Source: Gemmatimonadota bacterium
GTDB taxonomy: Bacteria; Gemmatimonadota; Gemmatimonadetes; Palauibacterales; KS3-K002
Length of the DNA: 34,792 bases
Direction of reading: 5' to 3'
NCBI GenBank assembly: GCA_039588075.1
Contig: JBDHAL010000048.1
Location: 1 to 34,792, forward strand
The notes beneath the pieces were generated by a model. The model was not told the DNA's origin. It ran no database searches and worked only from the letters and a program-made list of their open reading frames with translations. Of this stretch, positions 22,772-30,293 are shown in pieces. Position 1 is the first letter of the stretch. Each line of letters begins with the position of its first letter. Made by a program: the position numbers and the translations under genes.

Positions 22772-25700
22772 CTAGCCACGCACCTCGACCAGCCGGACCT
22801 TCTCTTGGCCCAGCACCGTGCGTAGCTCGGCCAGAACGTCGGGGACGGGCGCGATGCGCAGCGCCCGCGAGCGCAGTCGCGACGGTTCCGCGCCGCCGTT
22901 CCGCAGCATTACGTGGAGCGCCGCCGGCCCGGGGTGCGACCGGGCGATCTGGATGGCCTGTTCGAGCCGGTCGCCGCTCAGCTCGTCGGAGGCGTCGAGC
23001 TCGAGGCACACGGCGACCCGGCCGCTGCCGTACACTTCTCCCAGCGGAACCATGTCGTCGAGAAAGAGCGGCGGGTCCGAGTCGTCCCGCTCCCGGCCGG
23101 AGACGCTGCCGCGCAGCAGCACCGGCACTCCCGGCTCCAGGTCGCGGTGCTTGGCCCAGACGTCGCGGAAGGCGAGAGCGGTGGCCGTGCCTTGATAATC
23201 TTCGAAAACCAGGCGGCCCCACTCCGACCCATCCTTTCTCGATATGCGACGGTTGATCTCCGTCACGACGCAGGCGATCTCCACCTTCTGGTCGCGACGC
23301 TCCGCCAGGCTGCGCGTGTTGGCTCGGCCGGCATACAGATCGACCAGGTCCCGGTGCTCGTCCAGCGGGTGGCCCGAGACGAAGAAGCCCACCAACTCTT
23401 TCTCCCGGGCCAGCTTCTCCTCTTCCGTCCACTCCGCGACCTGCGGCAGCGGCGGCTCCGACGGGCCCTCCTGCGTCTCGTCGCCGCCGAACAGGCTCTG
23501 CTGGCCGGACTCGCGCTCGCGTTGGCGCAGCTGCGCCTCGCGCAGCGTCGTCTCGACGCCTTCCGCCAGCGCCGCCCGCGCTCCGAACCCGTCGATCGCG
23601 CCGGCGCCGATCAACGCTTCGATGACCCGCTTGTTATTGAGTCGCAGGTCGATACGGCTGCAGAAGTCGAACAGCGACGTGAAGGGCCCATCCTGCTTGC
23701 GCGCCGAGATGATCGAATCGATCGCGGATCGACCCACGCCACGGATCGCGCCGAGTCCGAAGCGGATGCTGCTGTCGCTCACCACGGTGAACTTGTAGCC
23801 CGACTCGTTCACGTGCGGCGCCAGCACCTCCAGTTCCAGGTGACGCGACTCGTTGATGTAGCCCACCACGTTGTCCGTGTTGCCGATCTCCGAGGTGAGC
23901 AGCGCCGCCATGAACTCGGCCGGGTAGTGCCGCTTCAGCCACGCCGTGCGGTAGGAAAGCACCGCGTAAGCTGCGGCATGCGCTTTGTTGAAGCCGTAAC
24001 GGCCGAACGTCTCCAGCAGCGACGCGATGTGCTCCGCGTCCCGCTTACGCACGCCCCGCTCCTGAGATCGCTCTATGAAACGATCCATCTCCTGGCGGAT
24101 CAGCACCGGGTCCTTCTTGCCGACGGCCTTCCGGAGTACATCGGCTTCGGCGAGACTGAACCCGGCCATCACGTTGGCGGCGCGCATCACCTGCTCCTGG
24201 TAGGTGATCACGCCGTAGGTCGCCTCGAGCACCTCCGCCAGCGTCTCGTGCGGATAGCTGACCGCTTCGCGGCCGCGCTTCCGCTTGATGTAGACGTCGG
24301 TCATCCCCGAGTCGAGTGGGCCGGGCCGGATGAGCGCGTTGACGGCGATCAGGTCGTCGAACCGGTCGCAACGCATGGCGCGCAGCTTCTCCGTGGCGAG
24401 CGACGACTCGAACTGGAACACGCCGGACGTGGCGCCGCCGGCCAACATCTCGTACACCTTCTCGTCGTCGAAGCCTATCTCGTCCCAGTCGATCTCGACC
24501 CCGTGCCGCTCCTTTATCATCTCCGCCGCGTCGCTGATCACCGTGAGCGTCCTCAGGCCGAGGAAGTCGAACTTCAGCATCCCCGCCTTCTCGAGGCTCA
24601 CCATGTCGTACTGGGTGATCACCATCTCGCCGTTTTCCGACTCCGCACCCGACCCGCGGGTCGTGGCGGTCATGACCGGCACATAGTCGGCCAGCGGGCC
24701 GGGCGCGATGACGACTCCGGCCGCGTGTACCGACGTGTGCCGCGACAGGCCTTCCAGCGTCGAGGCGTAGTCCAGCAGTTCCTTGTAGCGCGGCTCTTCC
24801 TTGTAAAGAGTCCCGAGCTCCTCGACGCGCTTCACAGCCTCCTCCACGCTAAGCGAGTAGCCGGGCGCGTTGGGGATCAGCTTGGCGACCTTGTCGGTCT
24901 CCGCCGGCGTGAAGCCCAACGTGCGACCGACGTCGCGGATCACGGCCCGCGACTGCATCGTCCCGAAGGTGACGATCTGGCCGACCGAGTCGGAGCCGTA
25001 TTTGCTCCGCACGTAGTCGATCACCTCGGCGCGCCGCTCGTAGCAGAAGTCGACGTCGATGTCCGGCATCGAGATGCGGTCGGGGTTGAGGAACCGCTCG
25101 AACAGCAGCCCGAAGCGCAGCGGGTCGATGTCAGTGATGCGAAGCGCGTAAGCGACCAGCGAACCGGCGGCGGAGCCGCGGCCGGGGCCCACCGGCACGC
25201 CGGCCTCTCTGGCGGCCCTGATGAAGTCCCAGACGATGAGGAAGTAGCCGCTGTAGCCGCAGCGGGTGATCACGTCCAGCTCGTAGTCGAGTCGCTCGCG
25301 CACGGCCTCGGGCAGGGGATCGCCGTAGCGCTCGACGGCGCCCCGCTCGGACAGCTCGCGCAGCAGTTGGTCCTCGGACCCGGAGCCCTCGGGACGCGGG
25401 AACTCTGGCAGGTAGACTTTGTCCTCGAACTCGACGTTGCAGCGTTCGGCGACCTGCATCGTGTTCGCCAGGACCTCGGGCCGGTCGCCGAACATGACCT
25501 GCATCTCCTCCAGCGACTTGAAGTAGCTCTCCTGGCCGTGGAAGCGCAGCCGTCTCGGGTCGTCCCGGTCTTTGCCGGTGCCGATGCACAGCAGGATGTC
25601 GTGGGCGTCGGCGTCCTCGCGGCGCAGGTAGTGGGCATCGTTGGTGGCCAGCACCGGCAGCCCCAGCTCCTCGGCGATTTGATACACGCCCTGCCGCACC

Positions 25701-27283: not shown

Positions 27284-27985
27284 TCAGTCGTCGGACAGGT
27301 CGGTCATCCACCTGCCTTTGAGATACTCGACGCGACGCGGCTCTTCGATCTCCGCCACCCGGTTCACCAGCGACTGGATCCGCTGCGCCAGGGCGCGCAG
27401 GCTCGCCACGCTCTCCCGTTGATCCGCCGGCAACGTCCCGGCCTCCTCGGCCAGCAAGTCGGTCTCCGCCACCAGCGCCGCCAGCGGATTGTGGATCTCG
27501 TGCTTCAGCGCCACCGCCAGCTCGCTGGTCGCCGCCGCCCGCTCCGCCACCACGCGTCGCCGGTACTCCAGGCGCAGCAGCTCCGTCAGCCCGGCGATCG
27601 CCACGCCCAGCACCACGATCGCTAGGAACACCGTCGCCGCGAAAACCAGGCGGTCGCCGGCGAACGCGTTCGGCCCGTGGACCAACCGCTCAACCGCCGC
27701 GAACAGAACCAGCGCGATGAACAGCGACGCCGCGGCGCCCCGCGCCCCCCAGTAGAACGCCAGTACGATCGTTGGGATCAGCATGGCGGCCCAGAGGACT
27801 TCCATGCTTGGCCAGCCCAACGCGCCCAACAGAATCGAGTGCAGGCCCGCTGCCGCATACATCAGGCTGGACAAAACCAGGATCCCGCGCGGGCGGGTGA
27901 GTAGGGTCGAGACTTCGGTGAGTACCTGTAGACGCATGGTGGCCACAATATCGCCGGGGACCCCGGACCGAGCAACCGAAAACAA
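27284..27985 (-). CDS. Membrane protein with a HisKA (DHp) phosphoacceptor domain but no HATPase_c domain; alternative start at 27937
   Basis: Four to five transmembrane helices, then ELAVALKHEIHNPLAALVAETDLL (H-box). The ORF ends 10 nt before the next gene, leaving no room for a catalytic domain. Confidence 0.65.
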   Translation of the reverse strand: MFSVARSGVPGDIVATMRLQVLTEVSTLLTRPRGILVLSSLMYAAAGLHSILLGALGWPSMEVLWAAMLIPTIVLAFYWGARGAAASLFIALVLFAAVERLVHGPNAFAGDRLVFAATVFLAIVVLGVAIAGLTELLRLEYRRRVVAERAAATSELAVALKHEIHNPLAALVAETDLLAEEAGTLPADQRESVASLRALAQRIQSLVNRVAEIEEPRRVEYLKGRWMTDLSDD

Positions 27986-28118
27986 GTTCTTGACAACTCT
28001 CGCGACGTCTATTATTCAGCGGGCATGGGCTTCGTGTGGCCGACACACGGGCTCCGGAACCTGAACCTGGACGGTTCTTAGTCACGATCTTCGTCAGTGA
28101 TTTTTCAGGAGGGAGGAG
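27986..28118 (+). promoter_or_regulatory. Candidate promoter and 5' leader for the acidic ORF / M28 peptidase transcription unit
   Basis: cTTGACAactctcgcgacgtcTATTATtcagc is sigma-70-like, but the spacer is only about 14-15 nt. Assigned by inspection only. Confidence 0.3.
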
Positions 28119-28352
28119 ATGAGCACGAGGCAGGGTCGTCCGTTCGGTGATGACGACAAGTACGAAGCACGTATTGAGGAGGAGTACAAGGCCGACGAGT
28201 TCGAGGACGAGTACTCCGGCGAGGAAGTCGAGTTCAAGGACGAGTTCGGGGATGAAGACGAAGACGAGTGGGACGAGGAGTACGAAGACGACGAGAGCGG
28301 CGACGATAGCGAAAGTATTCCGCGCCGCCGCCGCCGCGACGAGTGGGAGTAG
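28119..28352 (+). CDS. Small, strongly acidic (D/E-rich) protein of 77 aa
   Basis: A perfect AGGAGG box (AGGAGGGAGGAG) lies 6 nt before ATG 28119. GC3-rich codons (gag/gac/tac/ttc/aag) are typical of this genome, whereas the overlapping frame is rich in agt/agg/acg. Sequence: ...EEYKADEFEDEYSGEEVEFKDEFGDEDEDEWDEEYEDDESGDDSESIPRRRRRDEWE. Confidence 0.5.
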   Translation: MSTRQGRPFGDDDKYEARIEEEYKADEFEDEYSGEEVEFKDEFGDEDEDEWDEEYEDDESGDDSESIPRRRRRDEWE

Positions 28353-29751
28353 CGGTCGTACCGTCGTCATCGCCGTTGTTTCCACTCTCTGCTTGGCCGC
28401 GATCCCCGCCCGGGCGCGCGCCCAGGCGATCGCCGCGGATCCCACCAACGACATAGTCGCCCGCGCCATCGAAGCGCCTGAGCTTGCGGCCATGGCCGCC
28501 GGCCTCATCGACACCATCGGTGGCCGGCTGTCCGGAACGCCGGCCGGCACCCGTGCCGAGGCCTGGGCCGCTCAGTGGTTGCGCGGCATCGGACTCGACT
28601 CCGTATGGTACGAGGTCGTACGCATCCCCGCCTGGCGGCGCGGGCCCGTCGAGTTGCACGTGACGACGCCGGCCGCGCTCCGCCACCACCCCATCGCCGC
28701 GATCGCCTATGGTTACTCGCCCGGGATGTCCTCCGATTCGGTGCCGCTCTTCGACATCGGTCGGGGTGACACCACTGCCATAACGGCGCTTGGCGACGCG
28801 GCCCGGGGCGCCGCCCTGCTATCCGACGTGGTCAGTCCAGAGATCGTCACCGCGGCGACCGAGGCAGGCGCTGCGGCCCTCCTGCGGATCACTTTCCAGC
28901 CCGGCCGCCTGCCACAGGCGCGGGTGGTGCCCATGCCCACCGGCGCGCCACCGGCCCCGCTGACGGTGATGGCTCTCTCCCACGAGGACGGCCTCTGGCT
29001 GCGACGCCAGCGCGCCGGCGGCCCCATCATCATGGGCATACACGTCCAGACCGAGACCCGGCCCGGCACCGTGCTCAACGTGGTAGGCGAATTGTGGGGG
29101 AGCGATCCGTCCGTCGACGGCGAGGTCTTCCTGCTGGGTGCCCACCTCGACTCTTGGGACCTAGGCGACGGCGCCATCGACAACGGCACCGGTGTGCTGG
29201 CGGTGATGACGGCGACGGCGGCCCTCGCCGCGGCGCCGGCCCGCCCGCGCCGCACCATCCGCGTCGTCCTCTTCGCCGGCGAGGAGTTGGGTCTGCTCGG
29301 CTCCAAGGAATATGTGACCGTGCACGAGGCGGAGCTGCCGAACCTCGTCGCCATGATGAACCTCGACATGGTGGGCGCGCCCCAGGGCTACGGCGCCACC
29401 GGTCACTCCGAGGCCGACACGCTCTTCGCGCGGCTGGCTCAAACGCCGGCCCTCCGCGACCTCGGCGTCACCACCGAGGTCAACCACGGCGGCGGCCCCG
29501 GCAGCGACCACCAGCTTTTCCTGCTCGCCGGAGTTCCCACCATATATGTACAGAGTTCGCTGCCGCCCGAGACGCCGCGCTGGTATCACAACGCCGGCGA
29601 CACCCTCGACAAGATCGACCTCGAGGCGGTGAAGGGGACCGCCGCCGCCGTCGCCGCCGCCGCCTGGGCGCTCGCCGACCACCCGGGCCGGCCCCTCCAG
29701 TTCCTGTCGCCCGAGGAGACCCTCGCACTCATCCAGCGTCTCGGCTGGTGA
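28252..29751 (+). CDS. M28-family zinc aminopeptidase with a signal peptide. The true start is unresolved. ATG 28252 lies inside the acidic ORF in another frame. The mature domain begins around 28354
   Basis: Signal peptide RTVVIAVVSTLCLAAIPARARAQA. Zinc-ligand motifs HLDSWDLGDGAIDNGTG, FAGEELGLLGS, MMNLDMVG, HQLFLLAGVP. No canonical start codon lies in frame between 28353 and the hydrophobic core. Confidence 0.8.
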   Translation: MKTKTSGTRSTKTTRAATIAKVFRAAAAATSGSSGRTVVIAVVSTLCLAAIPARARAQAIAADPTNDIVARAIEAPELAAMAAGLIDTIGGRLSGTPAGTRAEAWAAQWLRGIGLDSVWYEVVRIPAWRRGPVELHVTTPAALRHHPIAAIAYGYSPGMSSDSVPLFDIGRGDTTAITALGDAARGAALLSDVVSPEIVTAATEAGAAALLRITFQPGRLPQARVVPMPTGAPPAPLTVMALSHEDGLWLRRQRAGGPIIMGIHVQTETRPGTVLNVVGELWGSDPSVDGEVFLLGAHLDSWDLGDGAIDNGTGVLAVMTATAALAAAPARPRRTIRVVLFAGEELGLLGSKEYVTVHEAELPNLVAMMNLDMVGAPQGYGATGHSEADTLFARLAQTPALRDLGVTTEVNHGGGPGSDHQLFLLAGVPTIYVQSSLPPETPRWYHNAGDTLDKIDLEAVKGTAAAVAAAAWALADHPGRPLQFLSPEETLALIQRLGW

Positions 29752-29848: not shown

Positions 29849-29922
<74 letters not shown>

Positions 29923-30047: not shown

Positions 30048-30293
30048 ATCCTTCAGAAAGGCAACCCCGCTTGGCGTTACCAGGTTGGGCGGGGCTTCCT
30101 TTCGCTCGAGGTCGGCGGATATATCCGAGGCTGTCACGACGAGTTTGAACCGATCGAGGTCTAAGTACAACAGAGCCGCAGGGGACTCCTCGCGCCGTTG
30201 CGTGCGCGCGATCCATCGCTCGACGAGATTGAGAAAGAAACGCTCGGTTCGGCAGGTCCGTCAGCGGGACGTAGAGGCGTCCTGCTCAAGTTG

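Follow-up and report, generated by a model that had tools for sequence, protein, structure and literature searches.

In a 34,792-nucleotide (nt) stretch of a Gemmatimonadota contig (JBDHAL010000048.1, positions 1 to 34,792; 65% GC), referred to here as the window, a strongly acidic open reading frame (ORF) runs directly into the coding frame of an M28 metallopeptidase, which raises the question of where the peptidase starts and how it obtains a complete signal peptide. The original prediction suggested that a +1 shift in a run of CGC codons might join the arginine-rich end of the acidic ORF to the hydrophobic core of the peptidase signal peptide, and it also considered a separate small acidic protein, a single gene split by an indel, or a peptidase start at ATG 28252 within the overlap. 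Comparison with orthologous loci points to a conserved, separate acidic gene, and the window probably carries an allele with a deletion of about 60 nt, without any frame switch.

The acidic gene and its family

The acidic gene was located at positions 28119–28352 on the forward strand, from ATG 28119 to the stop codon TAG at 28350–28352, as read from the sequence and the ORF list, and was found to be annotated on the JGI contig L001. The predicted product of 77 amino acids (aa) contains 15 aspartate and 21 glutamate residues (36 of 77 residues, 47%), has a net charge of about −25 and an isoelectric point of at most 4.05, and carries the N-terminal motif GRPFGDDDKYEAR and the C-terminal motif RRRRRDEWE, which is followed by the stop. 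The Shine-Dalgarno (SD) sequence AGGAGGGAGGAG (28107–28118, forward strand) consists of AGGAGG (28107–28112) followed by GAGGAG, giving a six-base gap to the ATG, and its duplex with the anti-SD was estimated at −10.8 to −11.4 kcal/mol. The existence of a strongly acidic 77-aa ORF with an AGGAGG site, abutting the peptidase, was confirmed. The site had been called the best ribosome binding site in the window; it belongs to the strongest, but ranks fourth by duplex energy among all start-like positions in the window with at least 60 open codons. The GC content per codon position was coding-like in the acidic frame (0.70/0.32/0.78), and 0.28/0.78/0.73 in the peptidase frame over the same stretch. 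Codon usage was genome-typical, as had been predicted, with a choice of aspartate and glutamate codons (GAC 12 : GAT 3; GAG 15 : GAA 6) that agrees with dnaE and the peptidase gene.

A protein search with the peptidase identified about 60 close orthologues (55–74% identity), all from Gemmatimonadota metagenomes. The loci compared comprised five from genome contigs, 25 from metagenome contigs selected by alignment of the peptidase N-terminus, and several obtained by exact contig look-ups. On the same strand directly 5′ of the peptidase, an acidic ORF was present in each of the five loci from close genomes and, wherever enough upstream DNA was available, in those from metagenomes and look-ups; only L083 departs from this, with no more than a remnant of about 30 codons left. 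Across about 30 orthologous loci of Gemmatimonadota, the acidic ORF forms a gene of its own with its own stop, and its length varies from 58 to 99 aa. The family members share an N-terminus resembling M.AMRDPSLDPDDFYSARDE, an acidic middle part with scattered F, Y and W residues, and the C-terminus R(R/K)xRRx(D/E)W(E/D) followed by the stop. Both terminal motifs and the position of the stop were kept in the family alignment, and the arginine run encoded by (CGC)5 in the window (28323–28337, forward strand; RRRRR as read from the sequence), which was the proposed frame-switch site, belongs to this conserved C-terminal motif. Position-specific conservation was also found at a distance from the C-terminus, at R18, W51 and a SAR motif.

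A profile search of a word-indexed database found 21 members of the acidic family, and a HMMER scan of 1.84 billion cluster representatives gave 20 matches, every one of 70–99 aa; among these predicted proteins, none of the 20 was fused to a peptidase. An apparent in-frame acidic leader of the peptidases P0049 and P0030 was rejected as a gene-caller artefact; in L084 the gene caller had picked an off-frame TTG far upstream, while the acidic ORF of that locus stands alone. A more distant M28 gene from another Gemmatimonadetes genome (L007, 40% identity) has no acidic ORF and shows an ordinary lipoprotein-type start. A Pfam scan of the window acidic protein gave a best match of only E = 0.25, and for the 21 family members nothing below E = 0.02 was found in either Pfam or NCBIfam. 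Disorder is predicted for the acidic protein, for which AlphaFold2, run on the family alignment, gave a mean predicted local distance difference test (pLDDT) score of 58.9, with one three-residue helical turn and an otherwise unstructured chain. Taken at the level of sequence comparison, the acidic ORF is strongly supported as a genuine separate small gene, in agreement with one of the readings offered in the original prediction, since it has its own stop in about 30 loci and is never fused. The family is small and uncharacterised, is confined to one clade of Gemmatimonadota and lies outside any described family.

In L084 (2802–3032) the acidic ORF has a premature TAA and the C-terminal TGG is changed to TGA (..DDLDDS* TFGRRRRED*E*), which represents either recent decay of the tail or sequence errors. 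In L083 (507–650) the ORF has decayed to its remnant and the hairpin described below is absent. The closest relative of the window acidic gene is found in L082 (79% DNA identity over 505 nt), which has an upstream promoter-like box and an ATG equivalent to position 28252 of the window, and which departs into unrelated sequence directly after the RRRR codons (RRRRDD), possibly as a chimeric low-coverage contig. L082 could not be used for the junction between the two genes because it is a 515-nt contig of 1.4x coverage that diverges at this point.

Spacer, hairpin and peptidase start in orthologous loci

Many of the orthologous peptidases were shown to begin with MRGPxGPSxxF, which at DNA level corresponds to the inverted repeat GAGGGCC(C)-N3-5-(G)GGCCCTC and, behind it, a tail rich in T (e.g., TTGTCGTTTT). 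The hairpin begins 27–42 nt past the acidic stop and has stems of 9–14 bp (−15 to −26 kcal/mol). An alignment of 23 distinct copies gave a 13-bp stem with 87.6% of the cells paired and a covariation score of 0.207, compared with 0.134 for shuffled alignments; none of 500 shuffles reached the observed score. One stem pair alternates between A-U (13 sequences) and C-G (seven sequences), and seven core pairs show either no variation or variation on a single side; the structural support therefore comes from the base of the stem. A T-tract follows the stem on the sense strand only, with at least five T per 8 nt in 20 of the 23 copies and at least four in all 23. The residues read from the tail vary (C/R/Y/I, R/L/V/H, F/L) while the T-run and the stem stay constant in DNA, which argues for a constraint at the nucleic-acid level. 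An interpretation of RGPxGPS as a protein sorting motif was rejected for the same reason and because the stem base covaries.

Exactly one copy of the pattern GAGGGCC-N1-8-GGCCCTC was found per locus in 29 orthologous loci, and none in the 34.8-kb window or in 84 unrelated loci; a generic repeat or repetitive extragenic palindromic element was therefore rejected. The combination of a stem-loop and a U-rich tract that defines intrinsic terminators was present in the orthologous loci and absent from the window, and the copy in L004 passed a consensus terminator scan. We infer that the hairpin may act as an intrinsic-terminator-like element at the very start of the peptidase coding region.

Conventional starts for the peptidase were found in most orthologues. 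An ATG, GTG or TTG was present one to six codons ahead of the hairpin in 22 of 28 loci, lying two codons ahead in 13 and three to six codons ahead in nine more. In L089 and L090, AAGGAGG precedes the peptidase ATG by seven bases. The acidic stop and the peptidase start overlap as ATGA in L103 and L109, in a different relative frame, and the peptidase ATG of L004 is found among the last codons of the acidic gene, 14 nt inside it (GAT GAT TGG GAA TGA). No canonical start before the hairpin was found in L002, L086 and L108, and in L102 the spacer contains a TAG in the peptidase frame. It had been stated that a conventional peptidase start in orthologues without a conserved acidic ORF upstream would refute the prediction; the conventional starts were indeed present, but the acidic ORF was nonetheless conserved.

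In 27 of 29 orthologous loci, as in the window itself, the acidic ORF was in phase +2 with respect to the peptidase. The spacer from the acidic stop to the hairpin (L002–L113) measured 27, 30, 33, 36, 39 or 42 nt, and 34 nt in the two loci with an ATGA overlap. On a rough tree, at least 11 changes of spacer length were required, nine of which were multiples of three (binomial P ~0.001).

About a third of the public peptidase calls for the orthologues begin at the internal methionine of MAAGLIDTIGGR or near it, among them P0007, P0019, P0027, P0029 and about 14 others (416–435 aa). These late calls overlook a GTG or TTG just ahead of the hairpin and thereby cut off the signal peptide.

The junction in the window

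An anchor in the peptidase (the codons for GLIDTIGGR) lies 148 nt past the acidic stop in the window and 194–244 nt past it in all other loci; compared with the nearest relatives, the window is shorter by 48, 60 and 63 nt, each a multiple of three. When its junction was aligned with six orthologues by MAFFT, a single gap of about 69 columns appeared in the window, starting eight bases past the stop. The deletion junction was mapped to 28360/28361 (forward strand), where about 60 nt comprising the spacer, the peptidase start, the GAGGGCC hairpin and the T-tract are missing compared with all orthologues. Past the gap, the window residues GRTVVIAVVSTLCLAA are aligned to the L112 core region PRVAAVLFLSLCLTGF. 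Between the window and contig L001, which comes from a JGI sample, there are three mismatches and a 25-nt indel elsewhere, but the two are identical over 28119–28493; as the junction is identical in an assembly that differs elsewhere, it is not peculiar to one assembly. With regard to the indel proposed in the original prediction, there was never one gene that was split in two, but a deletion of about 60 nt does explain the collision. Two relatives of at least 90% identity, L114 and L115, start within the peptidase gene and do not cover the junction. The contigs of near-identical relatives were observed to break within about 170 nt past it (L001 ends at 28518 and L114 starts at about 28534; L115 also breaks there), which may reflect strain heterogeneity.

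Downstream of the junction, the mature M28 metallopeptidase (carboxypeptidase Q/Iap-like) is encoded in an intact frame at 28429–29751 on the forward strand. It matched Pfam PF04389 (Peptidase_M28) with 126.3 bits against a gathering cut-off of 21.3 (E = 1.6e-36), and all family-invariant columns were kept in comparison with the orthologues. The remainder of the signal peptide (28357–28428, forward strand) consists of an arginine, the core TVVIAVVSTLCLAAIPA and the c-region RARAQA, and aligns with the cores of orthologues such as L112; the core reaches 2.6 in Kyte-Doolittle windows of 15 residues. A Sec-type core of 10–20 residues with an AxA-type c-region was hence found in the window peptidase, and a start with a short positive n-region directly before the core was not. 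Two proteins from the 90% cluster of the window peptidase, P0157 and P0159 (NCBI MHC4091586.1 and MHC4610705.1), carry the label of Planctomycetota metagenome-assembled genomes while the orthologues are all labelled Gemmatimonadota; a binning or labelling conflict is the probable cause.

The peptidase frame is open from GTG 28147 and reads ...SSGRTVVIAVVSTLCLAAIPARARAQA across and beyond the TAG. The first core codons had been placed two nt past the acidic stop, but the serine codons AGT (28348–28350) and AGC (28351–28353) in fact overlap it. As had been predicted, no ATG, GTG or TTG is present in this frame between 28253 and 28392. The canonical starts before the core are GTG 28147, ATG 28150, TTG 28174 and ATG 28252, and the next, TTG 28393, lies within the core. 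Initiation at GTG 28147, ATG 28150 or ATG 28252 would retain the hydrophobic core, and the non-canonical ATC 28369 was listed as a further candidate. The public starts, TTG 28393 (JGI) and ATG 28492 (NCBI, P0001), both cut off the signal peptide. ATG 28252 (28252–28254, forward strand), which lies inside the acidic gene and was called the sole canonical start that keeps a signal peptide, would give a 36-aa n-region with a net charge of +8, MKTKTSGTRSTKTTRAATIAKVFRAAAAATSGSSGR, followed by the core and AQA. GAN codons read in the +1 frame give Lys, Thr, Arg and Met, hence the richness of this n-region in lysine, threonine and arginine. A precedent was found in L083, where the peptidase n-region MMMMTTKTRTSERSK is derived from the off-frame of the remaining GAT, GAC and GAA codons. 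Judged from the sequence, initiation of the window peptidase at ATG 28252 is proposed tentatively, with chances somewhat short of even.

A window-specific RNA hairpin was observed at 28341–28388 (forward strand), in which GAGUGGGAGUAGCGG pairs with CCGUUGUUUCCACUC over 15 bp including G-U pairs and encloses the TAG. RNAfold gave −30.7 kcal/mol for 28330–28400 (z = −2.2; matched by 5 of 200 shuffles), and the evidence for this hairpin is weak. A terminator scan near 28352 found no terminator-like site in the window.

These observations are probably best explained by a fixed layout in the clade, in which a promoter-like box, a strong SD and the acidic gene would be followed by a spacer of 27–42 nt, the peptidase start, the GC-rich hairpin with its T-tract, the signal-peptide core and the M28 peptidase. 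With the hairpin inside the first ten or so peptidase codons, the acidic gene would form a strongly expressed unit, and only read-through transcripts would reach the peptidase, whose start would be partly buried in structure. In the window, about 60 nt (in steps of three) would have been deleted, taking away the spacer, the peptidase start and the hairpin and bringing the acidic stop against the hydrophobic core. For the window peptidase this would leave either initiation at ATG 28252, which is in +1 to the acidic gene, or the loss of its secreted form.

Several points weigh against this explanation. The three-base bias of the spacer is not accounted for, as the spacer should mostly be non-coding. 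The SD of ATG 28252 is weak (AAGGA 11 nt upstream, −5.1 kcal/mol), and around this codon another frame would be heavily translated. The hairpin copy of L090 was not called by a simple terminator scan, the invariance of the stem core makes most pairs uninformative on structure, and a palindromic protein-binding site is a conceivable alternative role for the element. A shared assembly artefact at a GC-rich palindrome may also be conceived if read sets overlap.

An artefact of this kind would mean that the true genome has the spacer and hairpin, or one continuous gene. GC-rich perfect palindromes are difficult for short-read sequencing, the contigs of relatives at least 90% identical break nearby (at 28518 in L001 and at about 28534 in L114), and the contig of the closest relative, L082, diverges after RRRRDD. 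Nevertheless, a sequencing or assembly origin is very improbable given the identity of L001 over 28119–28493 despite its differences elsewhere, and given that the missing segment is a multiple of three that leaves both frames intact. A programmed +1 (or −2) frameshift near the CGC run or the stop, which would produce a membrane-anchored peptidase with an acidic cytoplasmic tail, agrees with the +2 relative phase common to the window and 27 of 29 loci, with the excess of three-base steps among the spacer changes, and with the lack of a canonical start before the core or hairpin in the window, L002, L086 and L108. Against it, a +1 or −2 shift would change CGC into GCC, and a shift would turn the pre-stop codons GAG, GAA, GAC or GAU into AGU, AAU, ACU or AUU, so that re-pairing of the P-site tRNA is impossible in either place. 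Furthermore, the majority of orthologues possess an independent ATG, GTG or TTG, preceded by AAGGAGG in two cases, the spacer of L102 carries a stop in the peptidase frame, the phase differs in L103 and L109, no fused protein occurs among the predicted proteins of the 1.84 billion representatives, and the openness of the +1 frame follows from the GAN codon composition alone. None of three features of the programmed-frameshift class was found, which places the window outside that class, and the frame switch suggested in the original prediction is thereby left as an extremely improbable explanation.

The acidic ORF might instead be mainly a regulatory leader, whose translation controls the terminator or the peptidase start in the manner of mgtL or of SecM and TnaC. 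It joins an N-terminal D/E/P-rich LDPDDF, a long poly-acidic run and a poly-basic RRRR just before the stop, its product is predicted to be disordered, and a terminator-like hairpin lies downstream at a constrained distance. Translation is known to terminate prematurely at poly-acidic and DE/P-rich sequences, an effect that serves mgtL in sensing Mg2+, and ribosomes stall at poly-basic runs (PMC11162784). Yet 70–99 aa is long for a leader, the conserved R18, W51 and SAR motif would be outside the ribosome tunnel at termination, the stop lies 27–42 nt from the hairpin and thus beyond the reach of a terminating ribosome, and L083 retains the peptidase with a mere ORF remnant; the minimum-energy folds from RNAfold contained no competing anti-terminator pairing, although no alignment-based search for an anti-terminator was made. 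We consider a mainly regulatory role unlikely. A related possibility is that the acidic ORF, its Arg/Trp C-terminal motif and the invariant GAGGGCC hairpin form one regulatory unit, in which a hard-to-translate ORF (DPDD, poly-acidic, poly-basic) might sense Mg2+, polyamine or ribosome status and so set read-through into the peptidase, or in which the Arg-rich tail might bind the hairpin RNA, by analogy with lambda N/boxB, and autoregulate termination. Such a unit would attribute the three-base periodicity of the spacer to re-initiation running from the acidic stop into the peptidase frame without a canonical start, and would in this way also explain the window, L002, L086 and L108, but on the whole it appears decidedly unlikely. 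Finally, the 5′ end of the window peptidase may be disabled, the gene being untranslated or its product lacking a signal peptide through a start at TTG 28393 or ATG 28492. The lack of a canonical start with a usable SD before the core, the JGI and NCBI calls at these two positions and the frequent occurrence of Met 28492 in orthologues are in line with this, and are offset by the intact 1.4-kb frame with all family-invariant residues, by the n-region of L083, which shows that the acidic +1 frame can serve as such, and by Met 28492 itself, which is replaced by Leu or Trp in several orthologues and is therefore not the start of the family. A disabled 5′ end remains a doubtful but realistic outcome of the deletion.

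Flanking features and relation to known systems

Upstream of the acidic gene a promoter-like conserved box was detected at 27990–28021 (forward strand), with TTGACA at 27990–27995, a gap of 14 nt and TATTATTCAGCG at 28010–28021; the box lies 103 nt 5′ of the acidic ATG. A corresponding box, CTTGACAA-N13-TATTATT(T/C)(G/A)GCG, was found in 24 of 30 loci (e.g., L003, L089 and L113), 59–118 nt before the acidic start; the second half of the common box is TATTATTTGGCG. Its sequence suggests that the box in the window may act as a promoter. It was not called in a scan for the sigma-70 consensus, and the gap of only 14 nt between TTGACA and TATTAT would make its geometry unusual for sigma-70. The sequence CAGGAGGAGGGA before the acidic ATG was near-universal across the orthologous loci. 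An Rfam search of 27850–28550 gave no match up to E = 1.

The divergent upstream neighbour (27284–27985, reverse strand) encodes a membrane protein of 217–233 aa with a HisKA phospho-acceptor domain, which was also seen in L001, L110 and L112; no ATPase domain was detected in it. This protein, DUF4837 and dnaE are conserved neighbours of the acidic gene. The 25-nt segment that is absent from the otherwise near-identical L001 lies in the dnaE frame (24207–24231), and, its length not being divisible by three, either the window or L001 probably contains an error or a disrupted allele. On the other side, a tRNA-Ile (GAT) gene was found at 29849–29922, about 100 nt past the peptidase stop, followed at 30065–30094 by a terminator-like hairpin, CCCCGCTTGGCG...GGGCGGGG, with a T-rich tail.

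Compared with operon-internal Rho-independent terminators or attenuators, the orthologous loci share a GC-rich stem of 9–14 bp, a loop of 3–5 nt, a T tail on the sense strand only, covariation at the stem base and a position after the stop of an upstream gene that would be strongly expressed. They differ in that the putative terminator occupies part of the downstream gene's first ten or so codons, with the start of that gene one to six codons ahead or in the stem, in that the stem core is sequence-invariant over about 30 loci, and in that the window has lost the element. The ATGA overlap of L103 and L109 and the internal ATG of L004 resemble translationally coupled overlapping pairs, whereas the overlap in the window would be 101 nt (28252–28352), with a weak SD, and would be born of a deletion rather than represent the norm of the family. 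As in the +1 frameshifting of prfB/RF2 and antizyme, a stop closes the upstream ORF and the next ORF follows in +1, in a conserved phase, but here there is no slippery codon, no stimulator beside the stop and no fusion, the starts are independent and L102 has its additional stop. What the acidic ORF has in common with mgtL, SecM and TnaC is that its sequence is D/E/P-rich and poly-acidic, that a conserved motif ends the protein at the stop and that a terminator-like hairpin lies downstream (PMC11162784); unlike in these systems, the ORF is much longer than mgtL, the minimum-energy folds offer no anti-terminator alternative, and the regulated gene would encode a secreted peptidase and not a transporter or secretion component.

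Ocr and ArdA are DNA-mimic proteins that are small, hyper-acidic and folded. The acidic protein resembles them in its small size, very low isoelectric point and high content of D/E with interspersed aromatic residues, but it is predicted to be disordered, has no sequence or family match, and ends in an Arg-rich motif without counterpart. Overall, the comparisons would fit a strong small gene and a weak downstream gene with an internal terminator between them and, in some lineages, translational coupling over a short range.

The novelty of these results is modest and lies in a narrow new small-protein family and in an unusual conserved terminator-like hairpin inside the coding start of a signal peptide; current understanding is not overturned, and the idea of a frame switch is unsupported. 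For annotation, the comparison indicates that about one third of the orthologous peptidases, including both public calls for the window, are N-terminally truncated and lack the signal peptide. The clade-restricted, hyper-acidic and predicted disordered family comprises about 20 clusters at 50% identity among 1.84 billion proteins, and its fixed genomic partner, with a conserved RNA hairpin in the partner's first codons, makes the pair a candidate device for attenuation or for setting an expression ratio. The window allele may be regarded as a natural experiment, suggesting that the Lys/Thr/Arg-rich +1 frame of an acidic gene can replace the n-region of a signal peptide.

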